A DNA stretch of 64,000 nucleotides from Myxococcales bacterium (GCA_016720545.1 JADKKK010000003.1:345516-409515); one strand, 5' to 3'. Shown: positions 3,396 through 60,829, counted from the first letter of the stretch. Notes: generated by a model not told the origin, from the letters alone. Numbers and translations are program-made.

Positions 3396-4843
3396 CTACT
3401 TCTCCACCTTGCAGTCGAGATCCTCGCTCACGAGCTCTCCGCCCGCGGCGCCGCCGTCACGCACGTAGACGACGGTGAACCCGCCACGCGGCTTCGCGAA
3501 CAGGCGCGCCTCGGACGCCTTCTCGTCGTCCTTCGACACGGCGTACGCGCGCCCCTGCGAGCGGAAATCAGCGCCGATCGGCATGATCCGAGGTGCCCTT
3601 CCCTTCTCGACGTCGTCGAGGTAAGATCCAGCGCTGGCCCTTGTCGTCGCGGAGGGACTCGGGCGCGGGCCGTGTGCGCCGTGAGTCTTCGTCGGTCACG
3701 TTCGTGGGCCCTGCGGGCAGCGTACCGCCCGCGACGCGCGCGCCGCGAGGGTCCTGCACGCCCCTTGCCGGTCGCCTGGGCCGCCATGAGCACGGTGTCG
3801 CGCCGTCGCGGGCGATGTCGGGCATCTGGAGTAGCCGGGGTAGCTCTTCGGCGCCCATCGGCTTCTTGTCGTGCGACACGAACGACGCGACGAGCCGCCC
3901 GCGTGCCACGAAGAACGAGCCATCCCGAAGCCGTCGGAGATGGGTGTCGTAGTCGATTCCTGGAACGGGCTCGCGCTCATCGGCGTGGCGTACGAGGGCC
4001 CTCGCTGTTCCGGCCTGGCGATGGTGAGCCTCGCCTGGGACTTGGCGTCCGCCTCCGTCCACCACCGGACCTTGAAGCTCGACACGACGACCTCCTCGTT
4101 GCGCTTGTGGGGTCGAAGAACGGACGGCAGTCGCGCTCGCGGTAGGGCCAGGCCGCCGTGATGTGGTGGGCGGCGACGAACGCCGGCACCGGGTCTTTCG
4201 AGGTCTTTGGATCATCGAGCACCGCCGGGCGCTTCCAGTCGACCCCAGCGCTCCGTGACGTTCGGTGGGGCCGCACACGATGGCGCTGCTTTCCGGGCCC
4301 GCCGGGTCGGGCGCCCTGGAACCTCGCGAAAGTCGACGAACGCCCCACGTTCGCGCCCTCGATCTTCGCGGGCGTCACGCGCCAGATGATGCGCGTCCCT
4401 CGCCGGCCTTCGGGGCGCTTGGCGAACTCGAGCCGGGTTCAGGTGACCTTCTTTAGGCCGCCCGCCGCCCTCTCCTTTGACGTTGAAGAGCACGCACGGC
4501 GTGTTACCGAGCGCGAGCCCGACGACGTCGGTGCCGTCAGGGGTCCCTCCGCCGTGAGCCCCGTGAGTGTTGACCCTTGGTCCACACCTTCTGGTTCACC
4601 GTGCAGGTGGGCTTCAGCTCCGGCGCGCTCGGCGCGCTGGACGCTCGCCGTCGCGACGGGCTGCCCGACCGCCGCGCTCGCCGTGGCCGACGAAGCATTG
4701 GCGGCGCCGCCGGTGTCGTCGCTTCTTCTTGGGCAGCCCAGGAGGGCCGTCGCGGAGAGCGGTGACGACGAGAGGCAACAGCGGAGCGGCCCTTGCTCAC
4801 GGGCGATGCTACCAAGGTGCCGCTCGCGCGTCAACCCCAACAC
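3396..4843 (-). pseudogene. Secreted or lipoprotein of unknown family, mosaic of at least 5 frames. Contains the apparently intact 62-aa tail ORF 3396..3584.
   Basis: Protein-like segments in successive frames. Lipobox-like N-terminus ...ATALLGC. Then KPTCTVNQKVWTKG, PDGTDVVGLALGNTPCVLFNVKGEGGG, VAAHHITAAWPYRERDCRPFFDPT, SSFKVRWWTEADAKSQARLTIARPEQRGPSYA, GIDYDTHLRRLRDGSFFVARGRLVASFVSHDKKPMGAEELPRLLQMPDIARDG and MPIGADFRSQGRAYAVSKDDEKASEARLFAKPRGGFTVVYVRDGG...DCKVEK. Confidence 0.45.
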
Positions 4844-10261: not shown

Positions 10262-11245
10262 GTGGCCCGCCTCCGCGTCGCCTTCGTCGGGCTGCCGCTC
10301 GCGGCGCTCCTGCTCGCCGCGGACGGCCACGACGTGGTGTACGCGGGCATTTGCCGGGATCGCGCGCCGGGCACCCGCCGGCTTCGGGCGCGACTCGGCC
10401 GGGGCCGCGTGTTCGTGAAGCCAAGCCTCACCGCCCACGCCGACCGCGTGCGGGCCCTCGCGCCCGACGTCGTGGTGAGCTGGTTCTGGACTCGCAAGGT
10501 GCCGGCCTCGTTCCGGGAGGCCGCCCGCCTCGCGGCGTTCGGCGTGCACCCGTCGCTCCTGCCTCGCCATCGCGGCGGAGACCCGTATTTCGCAGCCATC
10601 GATGCCGGGGACACGGTGACCGCCGTCACCGCCCTGCTCCTCGTAGACGCCGACGACACGGGGCACGTTCTCGGGCGGCGCGCGCTCACGTTCGACCCGT
10701 CGTGGAGCGCGTGGCGGCTGGCGAAGCGCCTCGATCGCCCCTCGCTCTCGCTGCTCCGGGAGGTGACCCGCGCCTACGCGGAGGGCCGGCCGCCCACGCC
10801 CGAGCCTCAAGACGAGGCGCTCGCGACCGAGGCAGGGCTGCTCTCGGAGGAAGACCTCGAGCTCGATCTGTCCATGACGGCGGAGCAGCTGGCCCGGCGC
10901 GTGCGGGCGGCGAGCCCGTACCCGGGCGCGTACCTGTTCGTGGGCGAGGCGCTCCTCACCATCGTCCGCGCCGAGGCGACGCCGGCCGCGCCGCACGGTC
11001 TTCAGCCCGGCGAGATCGCCGTGGATCCGGGGGGCGCGGCGATCGTCAAGACCCGCGATGGCGGCCTCCGTCTGCTCGCGGCGCGCCTCGCTGACGACGA
11101 CGACGACGCGCCGGACGAAGCGGGCGAGCGCGAGCCGGGGCCGGAGCGGAGCTGGATCGTGGCGAGATCGCCGATCTCGTGCGCGCGCTCGCGCGGGGAG
11201 GCGAGGAAAGACGGTTCCCTTGAACCGAAGGCTTACGTAGACTGA
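10262..11245 (+). CDS. Formyltransferase-family protein (methionyl-tRNA formyltransferase-like)
   Basis: GTG start 7 nt after the DHH stop. VARLRVAFVGLP, VVSWFWTRKVP and HPSLLPRHRGGDP match the Fmt HxSLLPxxRG motif. The Asp-rich C-terminal tail may hide a frameshift. Confidence 0.65.
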   Translation: MARLRVAFVGLPLAALLLAADGHDVVYAGICRDRAPGTRRLRARLGRGRVFVKPSLTAHADRVRALAPDVVVSWFWTRKVPASFREAARLAAFGVHPSLLPRHRGGDPYFAAIDAGDTVTAVTALLLVDADDTGHVLGRRALTFDPSWSAWRLAKRLDRPSLSLLREVTRAYAEGRPPTPEPQDEALATEAGLLSEEDLELDLSMTAEQLARRVRAASPYPGAYLFVGEALLTIVRAEATPAAPHGLQPGEIAVDPGGAAIVKTRDGGLRLLAARLADDDDDAPDEAGEREPGPERSWIVARSPISCARSRGEARKDGSLEPKAYVD

Positions 11246-11295
11246 GGCGCTCGACCATTCGCGCCCCCTCGGCCCCGCAAGAGAGCCATCGGGTA

Positions 11296-12723
11296 TTGAC
11301 TGCCCACGCTGGGATCAGAGCCTCAGGAGAGTGCCCCGTGTCCGACCCCGTGACCACTTCGCGTTCTGCCCGTGAATCCTTGGCTCGTGGCCTCGCCGCG
11401 CTCCAGGTCGACCCAAGCACTCCGCCCGCCATCCTCGAGATAGCAGAGCCCATCGCGCTCGCCATGGGCTCGCTCCACAAAATCGAGAGCTCGCAAGGGG
11501 CAGCGCTCGTGCCCAACGCGGAGACCGCGCTCGGTCACGTGCGGGCCGCGCTGTCGCAGCTCCAGGCGCAGACCTCCGGCCACCCCTCGGTGCCCAACGC
11601 CATGGAGGCGGTCGCGGCGTCGCTCGGCCTCGTGCACCAGCTCTCGAAGATGGTGACCGGGCCGTCGGTCGCGCCGGCCGCGCCGGCCGCGCCGGCCGCG
11701 CCCGTGCAAGTCGCCCCCGTCGCCCCCGCCGCCCCCACCGCCCCCGCCGCCCCCGCCGCCCCCGCCGCGGCAGCGGTCCCACGCCTCGGCACCCAGCCGC
11801 TCGCTCCGGCGATGGCCCCGCGGCCCGTGGCGGCCCCGCAAGCCCCGATGGCCCCGATGGCGCAAGCCCCGATGGCCCCGCAAGCCCCGATGGCCCCGCA
11901 AGCCCCGATGGCCCCGCAAGCCCCGATGGCCCCGCAAGCCCCGATGGCCCCGCAAGCCCCGACGGCCCCGCAAGCCCCGGCGTTCGCTCACCAGCCGGTG
12001 GCTCACCAGCCCGCTCCCCAGCAGGCCCCGCAGTTCGCCCCCCCGCCCGTGGCTCACCAGCCCGCTCCCCAGCAGGCCCCGCTGCAGGCGCCGCCGCAAG
12101 CGTTCGCGCCCCAGCCCATGGCCCAGCAGCCCGCGCCTCCGCAGGCGTTCGCGCCCCAGCCCGTCGCGGCCCCCCAGTTCGCTCCCGCGCAGCAGCCCGC
12201 TCCGCAGTTTGCCGCGCCTCCGCAGCAGCAGCCCACGCTGGCGCAGACCGTGGCGCTCGGCCAGCCCCAGCCCCAGGGTATGCAGCACACGCTCCCGGTA
12301 GCCCCCCAGGCCGCGCCGGACCCGTTCGCGGCGCCCCGCGGCTCCGCTCCCGCGCCTGCGCCCGCCGCCGCCGGAGGCCCAGGCCGGCCGGTGCCGGTGC
12401 TGAACGCCGACCTCGGCGCCCACAGCCCCACGAACTTCTACAAGGGGCTCTCGGGCAACGACGTCGTCGATCACGGCGGCCTGTTCGTTGCAACCTACAT
12501 GATCCCGAAGATCGGCAGCCCAGTGCGGCTGCACGTCTCGCTGCCCGGCGGGTATGAGTTCGACGCGGAGGCGATCGTGCGCTGGGCGCGGGACCAGGCC
12601 GGCAGCTCGGAGAGCGCGCTCCCCGGCTTCGGCGCGCAGTTCACGAACATCTCGCCGGAAGCGCGCCAGCTCATTTACCGCTACGTGCGCAACCGCGAGC
12701 CGCTCTTCCACGACGACCTGTAG
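11296..12723 (+). CDS. PilZ-domain protein with long Pro/Ala/Gln-rich low-complexity region, including 6 tandem PMAPQA hexapeptides
   Basis: Intact 475-aa ORF. C-terminal PilZ-like segment LHVSLPGGYEFDAEAIVRWARD...GFGAQFTNISPEARQLIYRYV. 18-bp DNA repeats at about 11848-11965. Confidence 0.7.
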   Translation: MTAHAGIRASGECPVSDPVTTSRSARESLARGLAALQVDPSTPPAILEIAEPIALAMGSLHKIESSQGAALVPNAETALGHVRAALSQLQAQTSGHPSVPNAMEAVAASLGLVHQLSKMVTGPSVAPAAPAAPAAPVQVAPVAPAAPTAPAAPAAPAAAAVPRLGTQPLAPAMAPRPVAAPQAPMAPMAQAPMAPQAPMAPQAPMAPQAPMAPQAPMAPQAPTAPQAPAFAHQPVAHQPAPQQAPQFAPPPVAHQPAPQQAPLQAPPQAFAPQPMAQQPAPPQAFAPQPVAAPQFAPAQQPAPQFAAPPQQQPTLAQTVALGQPQPQGMQHTLPVAPQAAPDPFAAPRGSAPAPAPAAAGGPGRPVPVLNADLGAHSPTNFYKGLSGNDVVDHGGLFVATYMIPKIGSPVRLHVSLPGGYEFDAEAIVRWARDQAGSSESALPGFGAQFTNISPEARQLIYRYVRNREPLFHDDL

Positions 12724-14926: not shown

Positions 14927-14936
14927 GCGGGCCGGC

Positions 14937-15097
14937 CTAGAGCGCCGAACCGCTTGATGACCGAGGATTTTCGCCGAGTTGCGAGCCGTGCGAGGCGCGA
15001 CGACGAGTCCTACTGCTGCTAGGCGAGGAGGAGCAACGAAAGTACGGCGACGTAAATCGGCGAAAAGCCGACCGAATCAAGCGGTTCGGCGCTCTAG
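14937..15097. repeat. 160-bp palindromic MITE/REP-like element with 22-bp perfect terminal inverted repeats (CTAGAGCGCCGAACCGCTTGAT / ATCAAGCGGTTCGGCGCTCTAG). Lies between convergent gluQ and the kinase gene.
   Basis: Seen directly. Internal complementarity (TTTTCGCCGA / TCGGCGAAAA). A second copy of the right half is at 55470-55548. Confidence 0.7.
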
Positions 15098-15098
15098 G

Positions 15099-16337
15099 TC
15101 AGCGGAGCCCGAGCGCTACGCCGACGACCACGCTCCCGCCGACCACGATGATCCACGCGAGCGTCCAGCCGAGCGCCCGACGCGGCGGAGTGACGGGCCG
15201 CTTCGACACGGTCTGCGACACCCGCGACCGGCTCGGGCGCTCGCGATCGGCGTCGCCCGTGCGGCGGCTATTCGGGGGGCGCGGCGAGAGCGAGGGCTCG
15301 GTGGTGCTCGCTTCGGCGGCGAACGGACCGGCGCTCGACGGCGTCGGCCCCGTGCGCTTGGTCTCGGGCACCGGCTCCTCGGGCGCCGGAGCCGGCGGGG
15401 TCTCCGGCGGGAGCGCGGCGCGCTCGGGCACGTCGTCGGGCTCGTCGGGGAAGATCTCGGCGCGCTCGAGCGAGGCCCGCATGGCGCCGGCCGACGAGTA
15501 GCGGTTGTTCGGGTCCTTCGACAGCGCGCGGAGCACGATCGCGGTCACGGCGGGCGAGAGGCCAGGCACCTTCGCCGCGGGCGAGGGCGGCGGCTCGGTG
15601 AGGTGGGCCGTGAGCACGGCGAGCGGCGTCTCCCCGCCGAAGGGAAGGGCGCCGGTGAGCATTTCGTAGAGCATCACCCCGCACGCGTAGAGATCGCACC
15701 GGCCGTCGAGCTCGTCGCCTTGGGCTTGCTCCGGAGACATGTACTCCGGCGTGCCAAACACCATGTTGAGGGTGGTGAGGTTGGTCGTCCCGGTGCCGCT
15801 GCCGCCGTTGACGATCTTCGAGAGGCCGAAGTCGACGACGGTGGCCCGCTCGGCGGCGTCGACGAGCACGTTGTGCGGCTTCAGGTCGCGGTGGATCACC
15901 CCCTGTCCGTGAGCGCACTCGAGCGCCTCGAGCACCTGCTTGGCGATGGCCACTGCGCGCGCCTCCGGGAGCTTGCCGTCTGCGATGAGTCGGTCGAGCG
16001 GCCGGCCATCGATGCGGGGCAGCGCGAGGCAGAGGAGGGGCACGCCGCCGGCCGGGTTCTCGACCTCGCCGACCTCGAGGATGCGGCACACGTGCGGCCC
16101 TTCGAGGCGGCGCAGGATGGCGCCCTCGCGCATGAAACGCCCGCGGATCTGCACCTCGCTCGCGAGGTGAGGGTGCATGACCTTGAGCGCGACGGACTCG
16201 CCGCTCGCGGTATCGCGTGCAGAATACACGACGCCCGTGCCGCCTTCGCCAAGTACGCCTTCGACCTCGTACTTGCCGAGCACGACCGCGCCCCGCCGGA
16301 GGCGCTCTTCGCTGGTGGTGCTCGCCGGGCCGTCCAT
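15099..16337 (-). CDS. Ser/Thr protein kinase with C-terminal TM anchor
   Basis: GEGGTGVVY, VALKVM, HRDLKPHNVLV, DFGLS, GTPEYMSPE. C-terminal WTLAWIIVVGGSVVVGVALGL. Confidence 0.9.
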   Translation of the reverse strand: MDGPASTTSEERLRRGAVVLGKYEVEGVLGEGGTGVVYSARDTASGESVALKVMHPHLASEVQIRGRFMREGAILRRLEGPHVCRILEVGEVENPAGGVPLLCLALPRIDGRPLDRLIADGKLPEARAVAIAKQVLEALECAHGQGVIHRDLKPHNVLVDAAERATVVDFGLSKIVNGGSGTGTTNLTTLNMVFGTPEYMSPEQAQGDELDGRCDLYACGVMLYEMLTGALPFGGETPLAVLTAHLTEPPPSPAAKVPGLSPAVTAIVLRALSKDPNNRYSSAGAMRASLERAEIFPDEPDDVPERAALPPETPPAPAPEEPVPETKRTGPTPSSAGPFAAEASTTEPSLSPRPPNSRRTGDADRERPSRSRVSQTVSKRPVTPPRRALGWTLAWIIVVGGSVVVGVALGLR

Positions 16338-43468: not shown

Positions 43469-44686
43469 TTAGATGTAGTGCACCTTGATCGTCTCGACGA
43501 TGGTCTTCAGGGCGCGCTTGACCACGTCGGTGCTCGGATCGCGGACGATGACGTACCCGTCGCCCTCGTAGCCGTCGCTCTTCGGGGCCCCCTCCTTCGG
43601 GAGGTCGGCCTCGACGACGAGGCGCCCCACGGCGGCGTGTGTCTCCCGCACGCCCGAGACCCCCACCACGCGCCCGCGGCCCATGCCCCGGAGGAAGGCG
43701 CAGCCGACCGCGTACTTGCGGTGCCACGGGGCGTCGAGCTCGCCGTCCACCACGGCGCGCGCCCAGCCGCGGTACGGGTCGATGTCGTGCGCGAGGCCGG
43801 TCATGCGCGAGATGTTCGCGCCCGGCGGACGCTGCGCGATCTCGCCGATCGCGAGGGTGCCGTCGCCGCGCTGGAACCACTCCATGTGCGTGAACCCGTC
43901 GTCGAGGCCGAGCGCCTCGACCGCGGCGAAACCGAGCGTGCGCGCGCCGTCGTACTCGGGCCCCTCGATGTCGCGCGGCAAGAGACACGACCACTGGATC
44001 CACGGATTCTCCAGGACCTCGAGGCAGCTCGGCAGGTAGTGCGAGAGCGAGTACACGCGTGGCTTGCCCCCGAGCGTGATGGTCTCGAAGCTGAACTCGC
44101 GGCCGCGCAGGAACTCCTCGGCGAGCACGGGCTGCTCGGCGGACACGCGCAGCCCCGCGAGCGCGGCGGACAGCTCCTCGTTCGAGCCCACGCGGAACGT
44201 GGCCTTGGCGCCCATACCCGCCGGCGGCTTCAGCACGATGGGGAAGCCCACGTCGGCCGCGAACGCGCGGGCGTCTGCCTCGTTCGTGGCGAGCTTGTGC
44301 CGCGCGACGGGCAGGCCGGCGGCGCGGAGCGCGTCCTTCATGCGCGCCTTGTCGCGGAAGAGGTCGGCCGTGCGAGGCGAGGTGCCGGGCACGTTGAACG
44401 CCGCGCGCGCCTCGGCGAGCTGCACCATCAGCGCCTCCAGAATGCCCACGATGCGCGCCGGCTGACCGTGGCGACGCCGCAGCACCTCGACGGCCTCGAG
44501 CAGCTCGCGGCCCGAGAGCGGATCGGAGACCCGCACGAGGTCGTGGTAGAGGCGCGCGTCCGCGCCCTGCGGCGGCGTGTGCACGACGCCGAGCACCCGC
44601 ACGTCGTGCAGGCCGGCGACGGCGCGGAGGAAGCGCATGGTGGTCTCGGCCGGGAAGGGCGCGACGAAGACGATGTTGCGAGGCAT
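43469..44686 (-). CDS. ATP-grasp domain protein, carboxylate-amine / L-amino-acid-ligase-like
   Basis: FRDKARMKDAL, IVLKPPAGMGAKATF, EEFLRGREFSFETI, C-terminal extension. Intact 405 aa. Confidence 0.7.
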   Translation of the reverse strand: MPRNIVFVAPFPAETTMRFLRAVAGLHDVRVLGVVHTPPQGADARLYHDLVRVSDPLSGRELLEAVEVLRRRHGQPARIVGILEALMVQLAEARAAFNVPGTSPRTADLFRDKARMKDALRAAGLPVARHKLATNEADARAFAADVGFPIVLKPPAGMGAKATFRVGSNEELSAALAGLRVSAEQPVLAEEFLRGREFSFETITLGGKPRVYSLSHYLPSCLEVLENPWIQWSCLLPRDIEGPEYDGARTLGFAAVEALGLDDGFTHMEWFQRGDGTLAIGEIAQRPPGANISRMTGLAHDIDPYRGWARAVVDGELDAPWHRKYAVGCAFLRGMGRGRVVGVSGVRETHAAVGRLVVEADLPKEGAPKSDGYEGDGYVIVRDPSTDVVKRALKTIVETIKVHYI

Positions 44687-44874
44687 GGCGCGCAGGGTGG
44701 TCCGCCGAGGGCCGCGGCGTCAACCGCCTCCGTGCGAGGCGGCCCCGCCGTCCGCCGCGCCGGCGCTCCGGGCGCAGAGCTCGCGCGAGTCGCGGTCTCG
44801 GACACGCAGAGGTTGCGTGGCGGTCTGCCTCATCGGCCGGCCCCGCGCGACCGCGGCCGTGGTACATCCTCCGG

Positions 44875-46092
44875 ATGCGCGTCGTCTTCCTTGCGCCCCT
44901 CTATCCGCCGGAGATGCAGCAGTACACGCGCGGGCTCGCCGAGGTGGGCGCCGAGGTGTACGGCGTCGCCGACACCCCGCGCGAGGCCGTGCCGCCTTCG
45001 CTGCGTCCCTACCTGCGCGACTACCTCCAGGTGCCTCGCATCATGGACGAGGACGACGTCATCGCGCGCGTGTCGCGGTGGCTCCGCGGGAAATCGATCG
45101 ATCGCGTCGTGACCAACTGGGAGCCCCTCGTCGTCACCGCGGCGCGGCTCCGCGAACGCTGGGGAATGCCCGGCATGAGCGTCGACACCGCGCGCGGGTT
45201 CCGCGACAAGCAGCTCATGAAGGACCGTGTCCGCGCGGCGGGCCTCCGCGTGCCGCGGTCGCGGCGCGTGCGTGGGGAGCGCGAGATCCGCGCCGCCGCG
45301 GAGGAGATAGGCTATCCGCTCATCGTCAAGCCGATCGACGGCGCCGGCAGCGCCAACACCTACAAAGCGACGACCGACAAGGAGCTAGACGACCTCATCC
45401 CGCGCATGCGCGGCGTGCCCGAGTGCATCTGCGAGGAGTTCATCGAAGGCGAGGAGTTCACCTTCGACACCGTCTGCATCGAGGGGCGCCCCGCGTTCGA
45501 GAACATCGCGGCCTATCTCCCCAAGCCGCTCGAGATGCGCACGGTCGAGTGGATAAGCCCGGTCATCATCACCGTGAAAGACATGTACCAGCCGCGCCTC
45601 CGCGGGGGCGTCACGCTCGGCCGCAAGGTGCTCGGCGCGCTCGGCATGGACGACGGCTTCACGCACATGGAGTGGTACCTCACCTCGAAGGGCGAGGCGG
45701 TGTTCGGCGAAATCGGGTGTCGCCCAGGCGGCGCGTGCCTCGTCGACCAGATGAACTACACGTGCGACATCGACCTGTTTCGCGAGTGGGCGCGCGTGGT
45801 CTGCTACGGGCGCTTCGAGGCGAGCACCAAGCGCAAGTACAACGCGGGCATCGTGTTCAAGCGCGCGCTCGGCGAGGGGCGTATCACGCGCATCGAGGGG
45901 CTCGACGCGTGGCTTCGCGCGTGCGGCGACTGGGTGACCGACGAGCAGCTGCTCCGGCCCGGCACCCCCCGTCGAAACTGGAAGAACACCTTGCTGTCGG
46001 ACGGGTGGGTGCATGTGCGCCATCCCGACTGGGCCGAGGCGCACCGCATGGCCTTCGCGGCGGCCTCCGGCATTAAAATGTTCGCGGAGTAG
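44875..46092 (+). CDS. ATP-grasp domain protein, paralog of 43469..44686, divergently transcribed
   Basis: FRDKQLMKDRV, LIVKPIDGAGSANTY, EEFIEGEEFTFDTV. Same N-terminal pre-domain layout (MRVVFLAPLYPPE.. vs MPRNIVFVAPFPAE..). Confidence 0.7.
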   Translation: MRVVFLAPLYPPEMQQYTRGLAEVGAEVYGVADTPREAVPPSLRPYLRDYLQVPRIMDEDDVIARVSRWLRGKSIDRVVTNWEPLVVTAARLRERWGMPGMSVDTARGFRDKQLMKDRVRAAGLRVPRSRRVRGEREIRAAAEEIGYPLIVKPIDGAGSANTYKATTDKELDDLIPRMRGVPECICEEFIEGEEFTFDTVCIEGRPAFENIAAYLPKPLEMRTVEWISPVIITVKDMYQPRLRGGVTLGRKVLGALGMDDGFTHMEWYLTSKGEAVFGEIGCRPGGACLVDQMNYTCDIDLFREWARVVCYGRFEASTKRKYNAGIVFKRALGEGRITRIEGLDAWLRACGDWVTDEQLLRPGTPRRNWKNTLLSDGWVHVRHPDWAEAHRMAFAAASGIKMFAE

Positions 46093-49841: not shown

Positions 49842-49914
49842 TGTCTCCCCTTCCAAAAATGGACCCCGAAACGTACGCAAGACCCGACCGGCCGTCCATG
49901 GTGGCCTCGCGCGG

Positions 49915-50445
49915 CGCGGCGCGGGAGCGCCCGGCGTGCGATGGCGGCCACCGTTCATGGACGACACCTCGCCTTGGGCTCGGGGCGTGTCTCCACGGTC
50001 TCCACGAGGTCACCGCGCGAACGCCGATCGCCGAGCTCAGCAATCACGAGCACCTTCGTGAATGACTAGCGCTACTGCGAGACTTCGCACGAAGCGCGCC
50101 AAGTCGATCCACGCGCCGATCACGCTTGGCTTACGAGGGAGAACCATTCGAGTGTTCGAAGTCCGTACACGGGATGTTCGGAAGCGGTACGTACGCGCGC
50201 TCTCCGTTCAGGGGTGTGGCGTGGAAAGACCAGCTCGTCATGCAGCGGAGCTCGCCCCTCCGGCTTGCGAGCGCGAGTCGCGCCGGATCGCTCTTGCTCG
50301 CACGGCGCCGATGTCTGGGGTCCCCGAGCGACGAGGGGGCGGACGGAACGCGGCCATCGAGCGCGGCGCGGGAGCGCCCGGCGTGCGATGGCGGCCACCG
50401 GGCGTGTCTCCAGGAGGTCACCGCGCGCGCGAACCCCGGGCCCCA
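49915..50445. repeat. Two direct repeats (about 110 bp at 49915-50030, about 90 bp at 50358-50445) sharing a 39-bp identical core GCGCGGGAGCGCCCGGCGTGCGATGGCGGCCACCG plus GGGCGTGTCTCCA..AGGTCACCGCGCG. They sit in a 690-bp divergent intergenic region.
   Basis: Seen directly. Confidence 0.7.
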
Positions 50446-54286: not shown

Positions 54287-55384
54287 GTGACGCGAGCCTG
54301 CGCCTTCCCCGTGGCGGTCCTCGCCGCCGCCCTCGCGTGCGCCACTGTCGGCGCGGAGAAGCGGGCGTTCGCCGACGAGCCGAAGCCCCGTTCCACCGTC
54401 CTGCAGCGCGCCCGCGCGAGCTCAGACCTGCTCGACACGGCGCCCACCATCGCGGCGGTCGAGGGCACATGGTCGATCATGCTCCAGGCCGGCACCCTCA
54501 TGAGCACGCGGGCGTGGCTCGGCCCGTACCCGCGCGGGCTCGCAGCCCACGTCGCCACGCGCGCCCTCTACGGCACCACGTGGTCGGTGATGCTCGCCTC
54601 GGAGACCCTCCTCGCCCTCACCGTCTCGGGCGGCAGCTTCGCGTGGCTCGGCGAGGCCCACTACCGGGCCGATCAGCTCTTCGGCGTCGGCGTGCCCGCG
54701 GGGTGCGGCTCGTTCGGCGCGAACGGCGGCTGCGGGGTGGGGCTGGGCGGCTTCGCGGGGCTCCACGCGCGCCTCTCGGGCTCGCCGGTTTGGGTCGAGG
54801 TGTCGGGCGGCTGGATCCAGCAGCGCGTGGGCACCGACGCCCAGCGCACGCTCGGCGAGTCGACCTGGGTGATGACCCCGATCGGGATCACCGCCGAGGG
54901 CGTGGTGAACCGGGGCGGCGCGGTCGAGCTCCGCGCGACCGGCGGACCCCACCTCCAGTTCGGCATGCACAACGGGCACGTGCACCCCACGGCGCTCGGC
55001 GACGAGACCCTCTCGGTCCCCTGGACCGAGCTCTTCCCCATGCACATGGGCCTCGGGCCGGGCGCGCGCGCCGAGGTGCGGCTCGTGCTTGGCCAGCGGG
55101 TCTCCCTCGACCTCGAGGGCGTCTTCACGCCGCTGCTGCTCTCCAGCACCGAGGAGCACCCGCGGGCCGTCCTCGCGCCGCTCGGCCCCACGGCCGGCCA
55201 GGGATTGCCCACGTGGCGCCGCCTCGCGATAGGTGCAAGCTACATCGATCGCGCCGTCCGCGTGGGCCTCTCGTTCTTCGGCGCGGAGCTGTCGGGGCGC
55301 CCGGTGACCACGCTCGGACACCAGGCGATCGCCCTGCGGCTCGACTTCCCGCTCGGGCTCGACTCCCGCGAATCCAGGCGCTAG
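54287..55384 (+). CDS. Secreted Gly-rich protein (365 aa), unknown function
   Basis: Signal FPVAVLAAALACATVGA. Gly/Cys-rich GCGSFGANGGCGVGLGGFAGL. Confidence 0.5.
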   Translation: MTRACAFPVAVLAAALACATVGAEKRAFADEPKPRSTVLQRARASSDLLDTAPTIAAVEGTWSIMLQAGTLMSTRAWLGPYPRGLAAHVATRALYGTTWSVMLASETLLALTVSGGSFAWLGEAHYRADQLFGVGVPAGCGSFGANGGCGVGLGGFAGLHARLSGSPVWVEVSGGWIQQRVGTDAQRTLGESTWVMTPIGITAEGVVNRGGAVELRATGGPHLQFGMHNGHVHPTALGDETLSVPWTELFPMHMGLGPGARAEVRLVLGQRVSLDLEGVFTPLLLSSTEEHPRAVLAPLGPTAGQGLPTWRRLAIGASYIDRAVRVGLSFFGAELSGRPVTTLGHQAIALRLDFPLGLDSRESRR

Positions 55385-55469
55385 CGCTCCGCGGCCACTG
55401 GCGCGAGCCTCGGGCAAGCCTCGCTCCGACGAGGCCGCCGAGCCTCTGGCTCGTCGAGCAACTCGGGTA

Positions 55470-55548
55470 GCTGCCGAGGAGGAGCGTCGAAGCGCGGCGA
55501 CGCAAATCGGCGGAAAGCCGACCGAATCAAGCGGTTCGGTGCTCTAGG
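55470..55548. repeat. Second, half-length copy of the 14937-15097 element (about 85% identity over about 80 bp: GAGGAGGAGC..CGAAAG..CGGCGACG.AAATCGGCG.AAAGCCGACCGAATCAAGCGGTTCGG.GCTCTAGG)
   Basis: Seen directly. Confidence 0.7.
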
Positions 55549-55628
55549 CAGCCAGGGGTGGGCTGGTGTAACCTCGGCCCGGCCACTCGGCCCTCCGAGC
55601 CACGCCCACGCCACCCAGAAAGAGCTCT

Positions 55629-56870
55629 GTGATCTCCTCGAAACTCCCCCGCACCAAAGAAGACCGCGCGATCTTCTTCGACGAAAAGGCCTGGCTGAAC
55701 CGCTGGGACCGGCTGACCGAGGAGGGGAAGAAGCTCAAGCGCTGCAAGCGCTGCCTGTACGGCGAGGATCTCCCGTCCATTAAGTTCGACGAGCTCGGCG
55801 TCTGCAACTACTGCGCGATGCACGACAAGCTCGAGGCCGAGTACCAGACCGGCTCCGAGGCGGCTTCGCGCCGGTTCTCGGAGATCGTGCAGAGCATCAA
55901 GGACGAGGGCCGGGGAAAACCCTACGATCTGGTGGTCGGGGTGAGCGGCGGCGCCGATTCGTCGTACCTCATCCACCTCGCGAAGGAGCGCGGCCTCCGC
56001 CCGCTCGCTGTTCACTACGACAACACGTGGAACTCCACCATCGCGGTGGAGAACATCCATAGCGTGCTGAAGAAGCACGACGTGGAGCTCAACACCTACG
56101 TGGTCGACAACGAGGAGTACGACGAGATTTACCGCGCGTTCCTGCGCTCTGGCACGATCGACCTCGACTGCCCGACCGATCTCGCCCTCGCGACCGTGCT
56201 CAATCGCGTCGCTGAAGAGGTGGGGACGCGCTTCATCTTCGAGGGCCACTCCTTCCAGAGCGAGGGCCTGTTCCCCATCGGCTGGCTCTACATGGACGCT
56301 CGCTACGTCCAGAGCGTCGTCACGCGCCATGGAAACGTGAAGCTCGACACGTATCCGAGCCTCTGGTTGAAAGACCAACTCCGCTGGATGCTCGCGCGGC
56401 GAATCAGGAAGGTACGACCGCTCTGGTATCTCCGGTACGACAAGCCGGCCGTCAAGGAGATGCTCATCCGAGACTACGGCTGGAAGTGGTACGGCGGTCA
56501 CCACCTCGAGAACCGGATCACCTCTTTCTGGCACACCTACTTCGCCCCCCGCAGGTGGAGCATCGACGCCCGCATCGTCGGGCACTCCGCGCACGTTCGC
56601 TCGGGCCTCCTGGGCCGCGACGAGGCGGCGGCCGATATCGAGGGACCTCCGCCTTGCTCCATGGACCAAGTGTTCATGATCATGAAGCGCTGGGGGTTCG
56701 ACCAGGCCCAATTCGAAGACTTGATGACGCTTCCGTTCCACGGGTATCGTGAATACGACACGTACAAGACCGTCTTCGAGAGGGGGCGCCCGTTCTTCTA
56801 CATGCTCGCCAAGCTCGAGCTCATTCCGATGAGCTTCTACGTAAAGTACACGTCGAAGGACAACATCTGA
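55629..56870 (+). CDS. N-acetyl sugar amidotransferase (WbpG/PseA-like PP-loop ATP pyrophosphatase)
   Basis: CxxC...CxxC N-terminus (CKRCLYGEDLPSIKFDELGVCNYC). PP-loop VGVSGGADSSY. Noticeably lower GC and A/T-ending codons compared with neighbours. Confidence 0.7.
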   Translation: MISSKLPRTKEDRAIFFDEKAWLNRWDRLTEEGKKLKRCKRCLYGEDLPSIKFDELGVCNYCAMHDKLEAEYQTGSEAASRRFSEIVQSIKDEGRGKPYDLVVGVSGGADSSYLIHLAKERGLRPLAVHYDNTWNSTIAVENIHSVLKKHDVELNTYVVDNEEYDEIYRAFLRSGTIDLDCPTDLALATVLNRVAEEVGTRFIFEGHSFQSEGLFPIGWLYMDARYVQSVVTRHGNVKLDTYPSLWLKDQLRWMLARRIRKVRPLWYLRYDKPAVKEMLIRDYGWKWYGGHHLENRITSFWHTYFAPRRWSIDARIVGHSAHVRSGLLGRDEAAADIEGPPPCSMDQVFMIMKRWGFDQAQFEDLMTLPFHGYREYDTYKTVFERGRPFFYMLAKLELIPMSFYVKYTSKDNI

Positions 56871-57002
56871 GGAACGAGATCTCGTGAAGTTGGGTTGGTC
56901 CTATTCCCACATGGAGTCGACGCAGATCGCCTGCGTCGAGCAGCTCGCGTCCACGGGGACCGTGCGCGACGGCGCTGCGCAGCGCGATTCGAGAGGTAGC
57001 AA

Positions 57003-58010
57003 GTGAGCGACGCAGGTCTTTCTGAACACTGGAGCGCGGACCGCCTCAAGCTTCCGTCGCAAATCGCCCCCGACGACTACGTGAAGGCCCTCCTCGCGTC
57101 CGTGCCCGAGGAACGATACGACCACTATCGGCTCTACCCTGCGACGGACAAGAAGGGCTGGCAGGAGTTCCGGCGAGAGCGCCTGAGAGACGCGCTCGCC
57201 GACGAGGAGACCGTCTTCTTCGGCGACATCGTAGATGGCTTGGCGCTGGCCGTTGGCTGCAAGCTGCCCAGCTGGGACCTGAACCACTTCGGCTTCCCCA
57301 TCGCGAAGATCACCTGGATGGTCTCGTACAACTTGGCGGGCGCCTCGCGAGTCATGGCGCGCCTCATGGACGAGTGCATGGCGTTCCTCGCGAGCCGCGG
57401 CGTCAAGCTCATCGTCACGAGGGTGGACGGGGACGATCTCGCGAACCTCCACCTGCTCGAAGATCAGGGGTATCGGTACTACGAGAACTCGCTCTGGTCC
57501 GTCATGGACTACTCGAAGATGCCGGCGTCGTTCGAGCGTCCCAACGTTCGCTTCATCGAAGACGCGGACATCGAGCGGGTGCTCGATCTCGCGGGGCGCT
57601 ACCAGTACTCGCGCAGCCACTACTACTGCGACGAGCGCATGGATCGCGCCCGGATCGACGACATGTACCGGGAGTGGTTCAAGACCAGCCTTCGGCGCAA
57701 AGAGCCCGTCATGGTCGTCCTCGACGAGGGCGAGGTCATCGGGGGCATCGTCTACCGGTTCCAGCCTTCGCTCTCGAAGCATCTGGGCCACAACTACGGC
57801 CAGCCCCACCTCATGATGATCGAGCCCCGCTCGCGCGGGAAGGGGCTCGGCATGGCGATGTTCCAGGGGAGCATGTACCTCATGTCGACCCTCGGCTCCA
57901 CGTGGCTCGACACGGGCCTCGCGAGCAGGAATCACCCCTCCGCGCGCACCACGATCACCTCGGGCTTCCGCCCCGTCTACGAGGAGATCACCTTCCACCG
58001 TTGGCTCTGA
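57003..58010 (+). CDS. GNAT-fold acyltransferase (two-lobed, sugar N-acyltransferase-like)
   Basis: C-terminal GNAT core VMVVLDEGEVIGGIVY...PRSRGKGLGMAMF. Lower GC, like the amidotransferase. Confidence 0.55.
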   Translation: MSDAGLSEHWSADRLKLPSQIAPDDYVKALLASVPEERYDHYRLYPATDKKGWQEFRRERLRDALADEETVFFGDIVDGLALAVGCKLPSWDLNHFGFPIAKITWMVSYNLAGASRVMARLMDECMAFLASRGVKLIVTRVDGDDLANLHLLEDQGYRYYENSLWSVMDYSKMPASFERPNVRFIEDADIERVLDLAGRYQYSRSHYYCDERMDRARIDDMYREWFKTSLRRKEPVMVVLDEGEVIGGIVYRFQPSLSKHLGHNYGQPHLMMIEPRSRGKGLGMAMFQGSMYLMSTLGSTWLDTGLASRNHPSARTTITSGFRPVYEEITFHRWL

Positions 58011-58101
58011 GCGGCGGCAGCTCGCGAGGTGGCGCGGCTCCGCGCGGGCGTGGCGGCATCGGCCCGTGTATCAACGGGCTTAGCAGCCCGCGCCGGGCTC
58101 G

Positions 58102-59490
58102 TCAGCCCACCTGCCCCGCGCACTCGACGCGAAAATCCCCCGAGCCGTCGAACCACACGTCGAAGATGGGGAGGCCATTTCCAAGGACGAACAATGTACG
58201 TGCAAGTTGCACGGACGCGAGCTGACTGATCTCTTCGGTGAGCGCCGCCGCTAGCTTCGCCTCCACGAGGCCCAGGCGTATCAACAGCTTCACGGTGAAG
58301 CCGCGCGTCGCGACGGCGACCTCGGGGTGGGCCACGAACATCTGCGTCCCGTAGGCGAGGGGTGAGATCAGCGGCACTTGCGAGAAGGGTCCGAGCGCGT
58401 CGTCGAGCCTCACGCGAAGCACGGCCCCCTCCACGTGCCCCCCCGGGAGCGCCGCGTAGAGGGCCTCCGTCGACCCGCTCCAGCGTGCGCTGAAGAACGT
58501 CCGCAGGAAGGCGCGCACGAGATCTCGCCGGGTGCCGTAGTCGTCCGCGTGGAGCATCGACAACTTGAGATGGCCACAGCCAAGGAGCTCGGGGGTCGAC
58601 AGCATGTCGAGCAGATGCGGCACCGCCTCGGGAGGGGGGGCCGTGAAGAACCTCCGCCACTCCCAGGTCTCGGAGATGCCCTCGACGTGCCGCGCGAGGT
58701 CTGGGTGGGCGCGTGCCGCCGCGATGGTCCTATTCCCTGCGGTCGTGTCCGTGTGCAGGCCACACGCCCCGAAGTCGTCGAGGCGTGCCTCCAGCACGGC
58801 GCCCACCTCGGCCTCGGTCATCGCGCGCTTGCGGAGGCTCTCGAGCGCCGAGAGCGCGAGGAGGATCTCGCCGCCGTCGCCGCCGGGCGTGCCCCAGAGG
58901 GCCCCGTGGTCACGCCCGTCGACACACGAGAGGTGCCCGCCCATGAGCAGGGCGCCGAGCTTCTGCCGGTGGATCGCCCGCGGATCGCCGAGGTGTTCGC
59001 GAATGTCTTCCAGGGAGAGCCGTCGACGCTCGGCCTCGAAGTGGGGAGCGATGCGGGCGATCTTGCCGAGGCGGAGGGGGAGCGCGCGGGTCGTCGCGTA
59101 GCCCCGAGAGCGCCACTCCGAGATGCCGCCCCACATGTAGGCGACGAAGCGCATTCCGCGCCCCTCGAGGGCCTTCGCGAGCGCGGGGGCGCGCTCGTTG
59201 GCGCGGTCGACCAGGAGCACCGGGTCGTCGCGATCGAGCGCCTCGACGACCTGTCCGAGGTCCTCGGGGCACACCGAGAAAGAGCCAGGGACCCGGCCCA
59301 TCGGCCCCGAGAGCTCGGCCGCGTCGCGCACGTCGACGAAGTGAAGGAGGCGGGCGTGCTTCGCGGCGAACGCGGCCGTCAGCGCCGGCTCCTGGCTCGC
59401 GCTGCGCACGATGGACTCCGCCCAGGTGAGGCGGAAGCTCCGGAGAGACGGCGGGACCGAGCCTATCTCTGGCACGAGGGACGTATCCAT
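58102..59490 (-). CDS. Rhodanese-domain protein with large uncharacterised C-terminal domain (463 aa)
   Basis: FVDVRDAAELSG..GRVPGS and LLVDRANERAPALAKALEGRGMRFVAYMWGGISEW, then about 300 aa with no recognised motif. Confidence 0.55.
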   Translation of the reverse strand: MDTSLVPEIGSVPPSLRSFRLTWAESIVRSASQEPALTAAFAAKHARLLHFVDVRDAAELSGPMGRVPGSFSVCPEDLGQVVEALDRDDPVLLVDRANERAPALAKALEGRGMRFVAYMWGGISEWRSRGYATTRALPLRLGKIARIAPHFEAERRRLSLEDIREHLGDPRAIHRQKLGALLMGGHLSCVDGRDHGALWGTPGGDGGEILLALSALESLRKRAMTEAEVGAVLEARLDDFGACGLHTDTTAGNRTIAAARAHPDLARHVEGISETWEWRRFFTAPPPEAVPHLLDMLSTPELLGCGHLKLSMLHADDYGTRRDLVRAFLRTFFSARWSGSTEALYAALPGGHVEGAVLRVRLDDALGPFSQVPLISPLAYGTQMFVAHPEVAVATRGFTVKLLIRLGLVEAKLAAALTEEISQLASVQLARTLFVLGNGLPIFDVWFDGSGDFRVECAGQVG

Positions 59491-59697
59491 CCGCAAAGAG
59501 TACGCCGCCCCGCGCGGGCCCCCGCGAGAATTGCGGGCTTCGCAGCCCGATCGCCGGGGCGCCGGGGCGCCGCCGCGGACACGACCGCCGGGGACCTGGG
59601 CACGTGCCCACCGTCCGCGCACGCCTGCCACCGGGGCCGCCTCGCGCGGGCGTTCCTCCTCACGCTCGGCCGGATTGTGGCCTATAGAGACGGCTCG

Positions 59698-60312
59698 ATG
59701 GGTCTCTCGCCTGCCCTCCCGGGTTCGTCACGGTCACGCGCGGCGCGTCCGGCTACGCCGCGCGCGAGCGCCCACCTGCTCCTCGGCGCCATCGCGCCCA
59801 TGCTGCTCACGGGCTGCATTCGCGGCTTCACGCGCGCGGAGACCGGCGCCGCGTACAACCTCGCCGCGCGCGACGGCCACTCGGGGCAGGTGTTCTCGGT
59901 CGACACCGCGATCGGGGTGGACGCCAAGACCGTCAAGTGGATCGACGGGGGGCCGCTGCCGTTCGCGGTGCACACGTCAGGCACGGCGATCCTCGCGCCG
60001 GATCGCAAGGTGTTCGGCTGGGGCACGGGGCTCGCGTACTACGGCTCGCCGCGGCCAATCTCCGGCTACCTGCTCGGCGGCACGTCGCTCCACTTCGACG
60101 AGATCAATGGCAAGTTCAGCTTCGGCAACGTGAGCCCGTACGGCGAGGTCGGTATCCTCACGTCGGTCCCGGCGCGCCACCGGCCCGAGGGCAACGGGCT
60201 CATCTTGAGCTTAGGCCTCCAGGGCGCGACGTACTTCAACTATCTCGTCAAGGGCAACGAGGTCGACGGCTTCCTCCTCGTGAAGCTGGGAGTCGGCTGG
60301 GAAGTGAACTGA
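59698..60312 (+). CDS. Lipoprotein (204 aa)
   Basis: LLLGAIAPMLLTGC lipobox. Beta-rich C-terminus. Confidence 0.5.
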   Translation: MGLSPALPGSSRSRAARPATPRASAHLLLGAIAPMLLTGCIRGFTRAETGAAYNLAARDGHSGQVFSVDTAIGVDAKTVKWIDGGPLPFAVHTSGTAILAPDRKVFGWGTGLAYYGSPRPISGYLLGGTSLHFDEINGKFSFGNVSPYGEVGILTSVPARHRPEGNGLILSLGLQGATYFNYLVKGNEVDGFLLVKLGVGWEVN

Positions 60313-60380
60313 GCGCGCGCCCGCGGTCGAGACCTTTCGCGTCTTCGCGTGAGGCGAGCGACCGCGACCCGGTCCGGGTA

Positions 60381-60829
60381 GCGCTCTAGCTAGCTAAGCT
60401 AGTCGCTGCGCTTTCGGCTCCGGGACCGCTTGCTCCGGGTCCGGCACCTCAGGCTTGGGGCCGGTCACTTTTTTCCCTTTCTCGGCCGCCTCTCGCTCCC
60501 GCTCCGCGCGCTTTGCGATGGCCTCCGCGGGCGGGCCTCACTTCCAGGTTCGCCATCGCCCGTGGTGAAGCGGTTGAAGCGGTCGCCGCGGTGGAGATCG
60601 CCGCCCACGCGGGGGACGCCACCCAAGAAGCGGCCGACCGATGCGTCGTCCTCGGGGATCGGTTGGTGGCGCTCCTCACGGGCCTCATCCGCCGCTGAGG
60701 GTTCGCGCTCGCCGCCCGCGGCTTCGGGTCGCGGTCGCGGTCGGGGGTCGGGGTCGCGGTCGGGGGTCGCGGGTCGGGGTCGCGGTCGGGTGGCGTTGGT
60801 CTTTTCCCGACACACTCCTAGCTAGAGCG
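60381..60829. mobile_element. ~450-bp MITE-like element bounded by perfect 12-bp inverted repeats CGCTCTAGCTAG / CTAGCTAGAGCG. Contains hexanucleotide (GGGTCG/CGGTCG) repeats and a small RP/DP-rich ORF (60465..60815, minus strand).
   Basis: Seen directly. Termini share GCGCTCTAG with the 14937-15097 family. Confidence 0.55.

Follow-up and report, generated by a model that had tools for sequence, protein, structure and literature searches.

The locus and its two cargo genes

The window, a 64-kb stretch of DNA, comes from a Polyangiaceae (Myxococcota) genome. It contains a lineage-specific insert of about 2.7 kb, whose cargo consists of two genes, one for an N-acetyl sugar amidotransferase (NASAT) and one for a tandem GNAT acyltransferase. 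The insert and the features around it are collected in Table 1.

Table 1. Features of the window discussed in the text.
Feature	Position	Strand	Remarks
Full-length MITE-like palindromic element	14935-15103		53-nt inverted arms, 79% complementary
Native left flank, conserved 365-aa hypothetical protein	54287-55384	+	91% aa identity in L014/L015, same relative orientation
Lineage-specific insert (real island)	55385-58101		Flanked by conserved native genes in convergent orientation
Right-arm copy of the MITE-like palindromic repeat	55470-55549	+	Directly upstream of the NASAT gene
NASAT (WbuX/WbpG/PseA family), 413 aa	55629-56870	+	TIGR03573 match, motifs
Tandem (two-lobed) GNAT N-acyltransferase, WecD-related, 335 aa	57003-58010	+	Acetyltransf_1, AF2/Foldseek
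Native right flank, rhodanese-fusion protein, 462 aa	58102-59490	-	Conserved in relatives, not cargo
Native lipoprotein, 204 aa	59698-60312	+	Lipobox LLTGC; 97% aa identity in L014/L015; not cargo
Separate indel of ~480 nt	60335-60817		Between lipoprotein and secreted-protein genes

The NASAT matches the TIGR03573 WbuX profile over model positions 2-343 of 344 (E 1e-56); its 192.9 bits lie 10 bits below the curated cutoff of 203.2, while the NASAT of the canonical locus L047 scores 236.9 bits. The family is defined by the motif SGGXDS and a zinc-binding tetracysteine (PMC10607449), and we found both: the PP-loop reads S106-G107-G108-A-D110-S111 (SGGADS), and the tetracysteine CXXCXn[GN]XCXXC is present as C39-K-R-C42 ... 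G57-V-C59-N-Y-C62. They are invariant in a 25-sequence alignment, in which the window protein keeps all 66 invariant columns. More than 4,000 homologues were found, and the window NASAT is 55-77% identical to homologues that lie in glycan clusters. Comparison with the 88%-identical NASAT of locus L017 (dN 0.081, dS 0.71, omega 0.11) shows purifying selection, and the gene is intact.

The tandem GNAT carries a Pfam Acetyltransf_1 domain at residues 217-289 (33.7 bits, cutoff 20.7). GNAT enzymes bind acetyl-CoA through the motif R/Q-x-x-G-x-G/A, which is conserved here in the C-lobe as RGKGLG (R278-G279-K-G281-L-G283). The AF2 model (mean pLDDT 80.2, pTM 0.78) has two alpha/beta lobes, and its top Foldseek matches are 7Q3A, 5KGA/5KF1, 7WX5, 2FS5 and 1OZP. 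WecD (2FS5) is matched with E 1e-10 and a target TM-score of 0.66 at ~12% sequence identity, and the profile of the GNAT family finds 2FS5 with E 3e-13 over profile positions 125-318. The window protein itself hits no NCBIfam family at E<=0.001, the WecD models NF008212 and TIGR02382 included; among 45 aligned relatives, 36 match the former and 23 the latter (best E 5.5e-24). The reading frame is full length and keeps the invariant family residues. Judged by these likenesses, the protein would work like a WecD-type enzyme, though it is not filed as WecD. The first-pass annotation had named a WbpG/PseA-type amidotransferase and a two-lobed GNAT acyltransferase; the full-length profile match with both motifs confirms the one, the Acetyltransf_1 match and the AF2 model the other.

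Extent and base composition of the insert

The limits of the insert follow from two related Polyangiaceae MAGs, L014 and L015, in which both flanking genes are kept while the genes in the slot are different. By blastn, the match to these relatives ends at ~55363 and restarts at ~58101; the renewed homology starts where the rhodanese gene has its stop codon (58102), and 58102-60312 is native. The L015 slot holds an Oxidored_FMN gene, that of L014 an OYE remnant with two other ORFs; the OYE gene or remnant is common to both, and the window shows no trace of it. In three more distant lineages (L056-L059) neither a NASAT nor a GNAT gene stands beside the rhodanese orthologue, and the pair is found near this orthologue in none of five related lineages. 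Two other samples yielded Logan contigs (L007/L008) with the same insert at 99.87% identity, and both proteins find 100% matches in a JGI contig (L021).

From this comparison the slot between the left-flank and rhodanese genes appears hypervariable, and the absence of the pair from the site in the closest available relatives is consistent with an acquired cargo for acetamidino-sugar modification. Gain versus loss is settled by parsimony alone, since the relatives compared are MAG contigs and the distant lineages share the rhodanese gene only. An acquired island had been proposed for 55470-60829. The acquisition agrees with the synteny, as the pair is missing from the orthologous site, but the block was drawn too long. 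Indeed, the rhodanese-fusion and lipoprotein genes lie downstream of the pair as described, yet they are conserved in the relatives (84% and 97%) and do not belong to the island. The rhodanese-fusion protein, with its rhodanese domain confined to the N-terminal part, has orthologues with 83-84% identity in L014/L015 and with 69-75% in L056-L059. The left-flank protein has no match in Pfam or NCBIfam.

Nothing was found that accounts for the insertion: there is no integrase or transposase gene, the window has no tRNA gene, and no direct repeats longer than chance flank the insert. The only mobility signature is half of a MITE-like copy at the left edge. This copy is ~90% identical to 15019-15100 (92% to 15040-15098 over 59 nt), and no more than a degenerate left arm, if any, accompanies it. 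Two instances of the 23-nt core GCCGACCGAATCAAGCGGTTCGG are present in the window against none in 100 shuffles, and the RNA fold of the full-length element has -105.5 kcal/mol (z = -9.5). On the right, a perfect 12-nt inverted repeat, CGCTCTAGCTAG/CTAGCTAGAGCG, lies at 60382-60393 and 60818-60829, at the ~480-nt indel. This element is present as a single copy in the window, is replaced by 34 nt in L015, and shows neither a coding signal nor a Pfam match. The repeat copy and the inverted repeat thus exist as described, but we reject them as the limits of one mobile unit: they are unrelated except for a short common CGCTCTAG end motif, and the right one is a separate indel 2.2 kb past the true end of the insert, two native genes away.

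The GC trough that had drawn attention to the region is real. The insert has a GC content of 0.641 compared with 0.721±0.016 in 558 same-size windows elsewhere (z = -5.05; minimum 0.683). The A/T-ending codons ascribed to the pair, in contrast, are not there: GC3 is 0.88 for the NASAT and 0.90 for the GNAT gene, with neighbours at 0.81-0.98 (GC1/2/3 of the rhodanese-fusion gene 0.73/0.50/0.89). The synonymous codon usage of both genes is indistinguishable from that of the 41 other ORFs in the window, with normalised codon log-likelihoods of -0.022 and +0.013 against 0.010±0.090 for 43 ORFs. The low GC sits in codon positions 1 and 2. G, A, R and P make up 25.7% of the residues in the pair compared with 42.4%, and F, Y, M, I, N and K make up 25.0% compared with 12.2%; NASAT homologues in loci of ~65% GC (L001/L004) have the same GC1/GC2/GC3 pattern. 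The dip therefore reflects the amino-acid composition of the two protein families and not foreign codon usage, and composition fails as an argument for transfer. The island inference is carried by synteny. Given the host-like third positions, the donor was itself a high-GC3 bacterium, or the insert has been in the host for so long that its synonymous sites have equilibrated. The case is also instructive for method: with a genome at 72% GC, a 2.7-kb trough of z = -5 arose wholly from codon positions 1 and 2, and since it stems from protein composition with host-like third positions, such a dip alone is no evidence of recent transfer.

Partner genes and related systems

The first-pass annotation was right that the usual HisH/HisF-like partners are missing. 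A tblastn search of the whole 64 kb with four HisH/HisF/GATase queries (E<=1) returned noise only. Neither sugar-nucleotide genes nor homologues of aminotransferases, dehydratases, glycosyltransferases or flippases occur in the 64 kb, which counts against the reading we prefer below, and 43 glycan-cluster proteins found no match in the window except a generic ABC ATPase. The neighbours encode hypothetical proteins, the rhodanese fusion, an ABC transporter, GlgA, ProB and ATP-grasp proteins. The NASAT gene thus lies outside any O-antigen, CPS or EPS cluster, and the canonical O-antigen setting that would have spoken against an island is absent.

Elsewhere, HisH and HisF are both adjacent in 13 sampled NASAT loci, and at least HisH in two more; they adjoin the NASAT gene in L001, in L018-L020 and in nine of nine GNAT-family loci with enough flank. 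Among 35 metagenome loci of the GNAT family we found a recurrent cluster of SDR dehydratase/epimerase, PseC-like aminotransferase, AsnB-like protein, tandem GNAT, NASAT, HisH, HisF and Wzx. In this apparently uncharacterised cluster (L026, L030, L036, L040, L043, L046, L047, L052, L054) the same tandem-GNAT family (30-38% identity) adjoins a NASAT. The window differs in its reversed gene order, in having no SDR, aminotransferase, AsnB, HisH or HisF gene, and in the subclade of its NASAT, which shares no more than 44-53% identity with the NASATs usually linked to this tandem-GNAT family. Its identity rises to 76-77% with P0003/P0004, NASATs whose glycan clusters have no tandem GNAT; these stand beside HisH-like genes, in L001 with a HisF-like gene as well. 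Together these identities indicate that the NASAT/tandem-GNAT pairing arose more than once. In loci collected from the NASAT side, a hexapeptide-repeat or small GNAT acetyltransferase is close to the NASAT. In L017 the gene after the 88%-identical NASAT encodes another tandem GNAT (28% identity).

The NASAT-HisH-HisF systems of E. coli O145 (WbuX/WbuY/WbuZ), P. aeruginosa (WbpG), Legionella (LpNASAT, 8WEX) and the Sphingomonas EPS cluster RS19260-RS19270 (PMC11340318) use the same enzyme family as the window and presumably share one chemistry, in which a sugar N-acetyl group, NH3 and ATP give an acetamidino group. Unlike them, the window has neither a glutaminase/cyclase partner nor a glycan cluster within its 64 kb. 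Compared directly with 8WEX, the window NASAT shows only weak similarity (E 5e-5 over ~80 residues). On the acetyltransferase side, the TDP-fucosamine (dTDP-4-amino-4,6-dideoxy-D-galactose) acetyltransferase WecD/RffC (2FS5/2FT0) likewise has an extra N-terminal lobe before the catalytic one, and members of the tandem-GNAT family follow PseC/WecE-like aminotransferases. WecD has a length of ~224 aa (the 2FS5 chain comprises 235 residues), whereas the window GNAT is longer and has a full second GNAT-like lobe. The solved tandem GNATs MAB_4324 (7Q3A), C. acetobutylicum glucosamine N-acetyltransferase (5KF1/5KGA) and MshD (1OZP) share the two-lobed architecture with the acetyl-CoA motif in the C-lobe only (Foldseek E 2e-11 to 3e-8, TM-score ~0.5), but at 13-16% identity and with different contexts and substrates.

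Function of the pair

We lean, with little more than even confidence, towards the pair being a gained sugar-tailoring cassette that acetylates and then amidinates, works in trans and sits in a hypervariable slot. Genes elsewhere in the genome would supply a nucleotide-linked amino sugar, whose amino group the WecD-like tandem GNAT would N-acetylate. As a zinc-ribbon PP-loop ATP pyrophosphatase, the NASAT would then adenylate the resulting acetamido carbonyl and exchange its oxygen for ammonia, and the acetamidino sugar so formed would go into LPS, EPS or glycoprotein. Since HisH/HisF are missing from the window, the source of the ammonia would have to be either free NH3/NH4+ or the products of HisH/HisF genes located beyond the window. 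Substrate, reaction order, ammonia source and expression are all predictions of this model. The recurrent adjacency of acetyltransferase and NASAT genes in other loci is in line with it.

It is unlikely that the genes are instead a non-functional leftover, a stranded piece of a larger glycan cluster that was partly transferred or rearranged and makes no product. The missing partners, which stand adjacent in all sampled loci with sufficiently long flanks, would fit such a remnant, as would the NASAT-GNAT order, the reverse of the canonical one, and an in-frame TAG in the tandem GNAT beside the L017 NASAT. Both window ORFs, however, are full length with every invariant residue kept, the omega value speaks for purifying selection, codon usage is fully host-adapted, and the insert recurs almost unchanged in two other samples; the independent re-pairing of NASAT and acetyltransferase argues for a functional unit. 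Somewhat less probable still is an ancient native pair, inherited at this site from the ancestor of the Polyangiaceae and later replaced in the lineage of L014/L015, with no horizontal transfer. Host-like GC3 and codon usage and the lack of mobility genes and att-like repeats agree with this, and the exact slot is seen in only one close sister lineage (L014/L015, mutual dS 0.19). The OYE trace shared by these two slots and absent here speaks against it, as does the lack of the pair near the rhodanese orthologue in all five related lineages; moreover, the NASAT dS of 0.71 to the nearest homologue exceeds the rhodanese-gene dS of 0.37-0.44 to L014/L015, the nearest NASAT homologues have other neighbours, and homology to L017 stops exactly at the ORF boundaries.

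We hold it for quite improbable that the two enzymes acetylate and then amidinate an amine on something other than a nucleotide sugar, such as a myxobacterial secondary metabolite, lipid or cell-wall component. The lack of sugar-nucleotide and glycan-assembly genes and of HisH/HisF in the 64 kb would suit this, the NASAT score is slightly under the family cutoff, and the tandem GNAT fold also serves non-sugar substrates (MshD, a clavulanate-pathway tandem GNAT and VipF are among the fold matches). Against it, all homologous contexts examined for either gene are glycan clusters, including those of the NASAT homologues, and no PKS/NRPS-type genes were seen in the annotated 40-64 kb part.

The gained sugar-tailoring cassette, our preferred reading, describes a surface-sugar tailoring module of ordinary type, whose one peculiarity is that it stands without its usual helper genes. 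A bolder version, which we consider doubtful, is that the pair is self-contained and portable, leading from amine to acetamide to acetamidine and retrofitting a glycan whose core pathway lies elsewhere; its NASAT would be free of a dedicated HisH/HisF pair, using ammonia directly or housekeeping HisH/HisF. Little is known so far of the biochemistry of NASATs (PMC10607449). An active pair would be a case of a NASAT working with no HisH/HisF pair dedicated to ammonia delivery, and of a surface glycan gaining a positively charged acetamidino group through two genes alone. Such an activity, if real, bears on the diversification of surface polysaccharides, and should the portable version hold true, the re-pairing of this NASAT subclade in the window and in L017 would mark modular surface-sugar diversification in myxobacteria.

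Extent and base composition of the insert

With the rhodanese-fusion protein as query, we retrieved three Polyangiaceae/Myxococcales MAG contigs, of which L016 was left out of the slot comparison because its contig ends within the rhodanese gene. The slot is the interval between a gene for a 365-aa hypothetical protein (54287-55384) and the rhodanese-fusion gene. The flank gene, the rhodanese, lipoprotein and secreted-protein genes follow a gene order common to the window and the related MAGs L014 and L015. Nucleotide homology to both ends at ~55363 and restarts at ~58101, and the slot content differs. L015 holds an intact Oxidored_FMN (old-yellow-enzyme, OYE, type) flavin oxidoreductase gene (5143-6321), while L014 keeps only an OYE gene remnant (~3878-4066) and two other ORFs. 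In three further lineages with rhodanese orthologues of 69-75% identity, a VanY-like gene lies downstream, and no NASAT or GNAT was found within 8 kb of the orthologue. Of the genes that fill the slot in the relatives (OYE and others), no remnant turned up in the window. So the lineage-specific segment is 55385-58101 only. The insert recurs at 99.87% identity on contigs of two Logan samples (SRR10932012 and SRR30303794), and both proteins have 100% matches on the JGI contig L021 (Ga0073904).

The first-pass annotation had drawn a longer island, 55470-60829, that included the rhodanese-fusion and lipoprotein genes. A mobile unit of this span was rejected because 58102-60312 is syntenic in the relatives, and both genes are native, being kept in L014 and L015 at 83-84% and 97% identity, as are the left flank gene (91%) and the secreted protein (about 80%). 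The island as such stands: the synteny comparison that had been suggested finds the NASAT-GNAT pair absent from the slot in L014 and L015 between conserved flanks. Among close relatives, the neighbourhood is a hot spot of gene flux.

Genes in and next to the insert
Feature	Position	Strand	Remarks
N-acetyl sugar amidotransferase (NASAT)	55629-56870	+	413 aa; TIGR03573 (WbuX)
Tandem GNAT	57003-58010	+	335 aa; Acetyltransf_1
Rhodanese-fusion gene	58102-59490	-	native; syntenic in relatives
Lipoprotein gene	59698-60312	+	native; syntenic in relatives

The rhodanese-fusion protein itself (462 aa) is without Pfam match over its C-terminal ~330 residues, and its orthologues (35-84% identity) come from Polyangiaceae, Sandaracinus and other sources. 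In L014, the lipoprotein and rhodanese genes are separated by an inserted fatty-acid hydroxylase gene (887-1738).

The window, with a mean GC of 72%, has a single marked trough at ~55.5-58.0 kb, where 1-kb windows give 0.61-0.64 compared to at least 0.675 in all others. The insert has a GC of 0.641 versus 0.721±0.016 (minimum 0.683) in 558 same-size windows elsewhere (z = -5.05); therefore the dip reported in the first-pass annotation is genuine. Its attribution to A/T-ending codons did not hold. Codon-position GC 1/2/3 is 0.58/0.39/0.88 in the NASAT ORF and 0.61/0.42/0.90 in the GNAT ORF, compared to about 0.72/0.56/0.88-0.95 in neighbour genes. The codon score, a leave-one-out log-likelihood of synonymous choice normalised for amino-acid content, is -0.022 for NASAT and +0.013 for GNAT, within the range of 43 ORFs (0.010±0.090). 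The trough stems instead from amino-acid composition: G+A+R+P residues make up 25.7% in the two genes versus 42.4%, and F+Y+M+I+N+K residues 25.0% versus 12.2%. The closest NASAT homologues, located on ~65%-GC contigs, have the same profile (0.57/0.39/0.87 and 0.56/0.40/0.89), and therefore the pattern seems to travel with the NASAT protein family. Host-like GC3 and codon usage led us to reject a recent transfer from a low-GC donor.

Repeats and mobility signals

The repeat copy noted at 55470 is real. It matches, as a partial copy (55470-55549), the right arm of a MITE-like palindromic element of ~170 nt, whose left arm is degenerate at 55.4 kb. The full copy at 14935-15103 has inverted arms of ~50 nt with the ends CCTAGAGCG...CGCTCTAGG and a predicted fold of -105.5 kcal/mol (z = -9.5). 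The element has no match in Rfam, and its 23-nt core is found in 0/20 of the comparison loci L001-L020. The element proposed as the right border of the island, a segment of ~480 nt (60335-60817) between the lipoprotein and secreted-protein genes, indeed contains a perfect 12-nt inverted repeat (CGCTCTAGCTAG/CTAGCTAGAGCG), but it lies two native genes past the insert. The window has one copy of this segment, with internal GGTCGCGGTCGGGG-type repeats, and L015 has 34 nt in its place; it matches no Pfam family and contains no convincing ORF. It shares a short CGCTCTAG end motif with the MITE-like element, but the two sequences are otherwise unrelated. The two repeat elements thus bracket no unit. 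Direct or inverted repeats flanking the insert gave chance-level matches only, and no mobility gene was found for it. Rfam at the gathering threshold and a tRNA scan returned nothing for the whole window, nor did sigma-70 promoter and intrinsic-terminator scans of 55300-58200. All in all, the observation of a low-GC sugar-modification island is partly confirmed and its interpretation as acquired cargo partly supported: the island exists, whereas its length, the GC mechanism and the delimitation by repeats were not borne out.

Other repeats occur elsewhere in the window. A perfect 40-nt direct repeat (49914-49953 and 50361-50400, copies 447 nt apart) is situated near the junction of two ORFs. 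Extensive 9-/18-nt tandem repeats of the CCCCGATGGCCCCGCAAGC type at 11712-12225, inside the ORF 11224-12723, encode a Pro/Ala/Gln-rich low-complexity region. Two divergently oriented ATP-grasp genes, 43469-44719(-) and 44398-46092(+), have inverted-repeat stretches of 60-68 nt (78-79% complementary) in common and are probably paralogues.

The amidotransferase and the tandem GNAT

The assignment of the first gene as a WbpG/PseA-type amidotransferase is confirmed. NASAT matches TIGR03573 over model positions 2-343 of 344 (E 1e-56), at a score of 192.9 bits that is slightly below the curated cutoff of 203.2. The family is defined by the motifs CXXCXn[GN]XCXXC and SGGXDS, as laid out in the LpNASAT structure paper (PMC10607449), and both are present (C39/C42/G57/C59/C62 and S106-GGADS111). 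In addition, each of the 66 columns that are invariant in a 25-sequence alignment is conserved in NASAT. Homologues number in the thousands; >100 share 52-61% identity with it, and the closer ones reach 88%, 77% and 76%. Compared with the 88%-identical copy in locus L017 (dN 0.081, dS 0.71, omega 0.11), the gene is under purifying selection.

The second protein is two-lobed, as was noticed on the first reading: its AlphaFold2 model (pLDDT 80, pTM 0.78) has two alpha/beta lobes, and the top Foldseek matches are the tandem GNATs 7Q3A, 5KF1/5KGA, VipF and MshD, together with WecD (2FS5). The single Acetyltransf_1 match is in the C-terminal half, and a conserved RGKGLG motif is present. A word-indexed homologue search gave 3 relatives only. 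That it is a rare orphan protein was nevertheless rejected because an exhaustive profile search revealed a sizeable family of proteins with ~320-335 aa, in which 67 cluster representatives pass E<=1e-30 and 1,017 pass E<=1e-10. A profile of 45 family members matches WecD (2FS5) with E 3e-13, and 36/45 of these members match the WecD model NF008212, but the window protein on its own gives no match to this model at E<=0.001. We therefore call it WecD-like in predicted function, not a WecD.

Neighbourhoods elsewhere and proposed function

HisH, HisF and GATase proteins of homologous loci found nothing in the 64-kb window, even at E<=1, in line with the lack of such partners reported before. Searches with 43 glycan-cluster proteins (aminotransferases, dehydratases, glycosyltransferases, Wzx, others) hit a generic ABC ATPase only. 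The genes annotated at 40-64 kb are those for ProB, a protease, ATP-grasp enzymes, GlgA, a glyoxalase-family protein, hypotheticals and an ABC transporter. Elsewhere the arrangement is different. HisH and HisF adjoin NASAT in four loci (L001, L018, L019, L020), the HisH N-terminus follows NASAT directly in L011, and in L004 a hexapeptide acetyltransferase gene separates NASAT from a GATase located about 1 kb upstream. Among 35 metagenome loci of the tandem-GNAT family, retrieved with an alignment of 8 closer sequences, the order NASAT, HisH, HisF was seen in 9/9 NASAT-containing loci with enough flank. Adjacent WbuX-, HisF2- and HisH-family genes were also all transposon-screen hits in a study of Sphingomonas EPS (PMC11340318). 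Because the partners are adjacent in all other sampled loci with enough flank, the orphan state of the window NASAT is truly atypical.

The tandem GNAT and NASAT occur together in a conserved and widespread glycan cluster (L026, L030, L036, L040, L043, L046, L047, L052, L054; metagenome contigs of 28-47% GC) with the order SDR, PseC-like aminotransferase, AsnB-like, tandem GNAT, (formyltransferase), NASAT, HisH, HisF, Wzx. Three ORFs of the L047 cluster, the tandem GNAT among them, have no NCBIfam match at E<=1e-5. The window has members of both protein families, but its NASAT reaches no more than 44-53% identity with those usually linked to this tandem-GNAT family; thus the window pair is a fresh combination, not a piece cut from this cluster type. 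In L017 (67-2288), the NASAT gene precedes one for a different tandem GNAT (28% identical) with an in-frame TAG, either a pseudogene or an assembly error, and nucleotide homology to the window covers the NASAT ORF alone and ends exactly there.

Since its usual partners are missing, the pair could be a stranded and inactive fragment. Intact motifs, purifying selection and host-adapted codons speak against this, and we consider it unlikely. The host-like GC3 would also suit ancestral genes that were lost from the relatives, a reading that seems rather improbable to us: the pair is in 0/5 related lineages, and the slot content common to the relatives is without trace in the window. Finally, we see little chance that the pair acts on a non-sugar substrate, given that all homologous contexts seen are glycan clusters.

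A role of the pair in sugar tailoring remains our preferred reading. An N-acetyltransferase close to NASAT is recurrent across the sampled loci, and other NASAT clusters contain a hexapeptide-repeat or small GNAT acetyltransferase in place of the tandem GNAT. Because this pairing is repeated and independent, it supports a putative functional unit. In such a unit, the GNAT would acetylate a sugar amine, and NASAT would then adenylate the acetamide carbonyl and swap in ammonia to give an acetamidine; free NH3, or HisH/HisF encoded elsewhere, may be the ammonia source. Both enzymes belong to known families as ordinary members, and the chemistry of the system is sugar tailoring of a known kind. 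The stand-alone two-gene arrangement without HisH/HisF, in a hypervariable Polyangiaceae slot, is mildly unusual.
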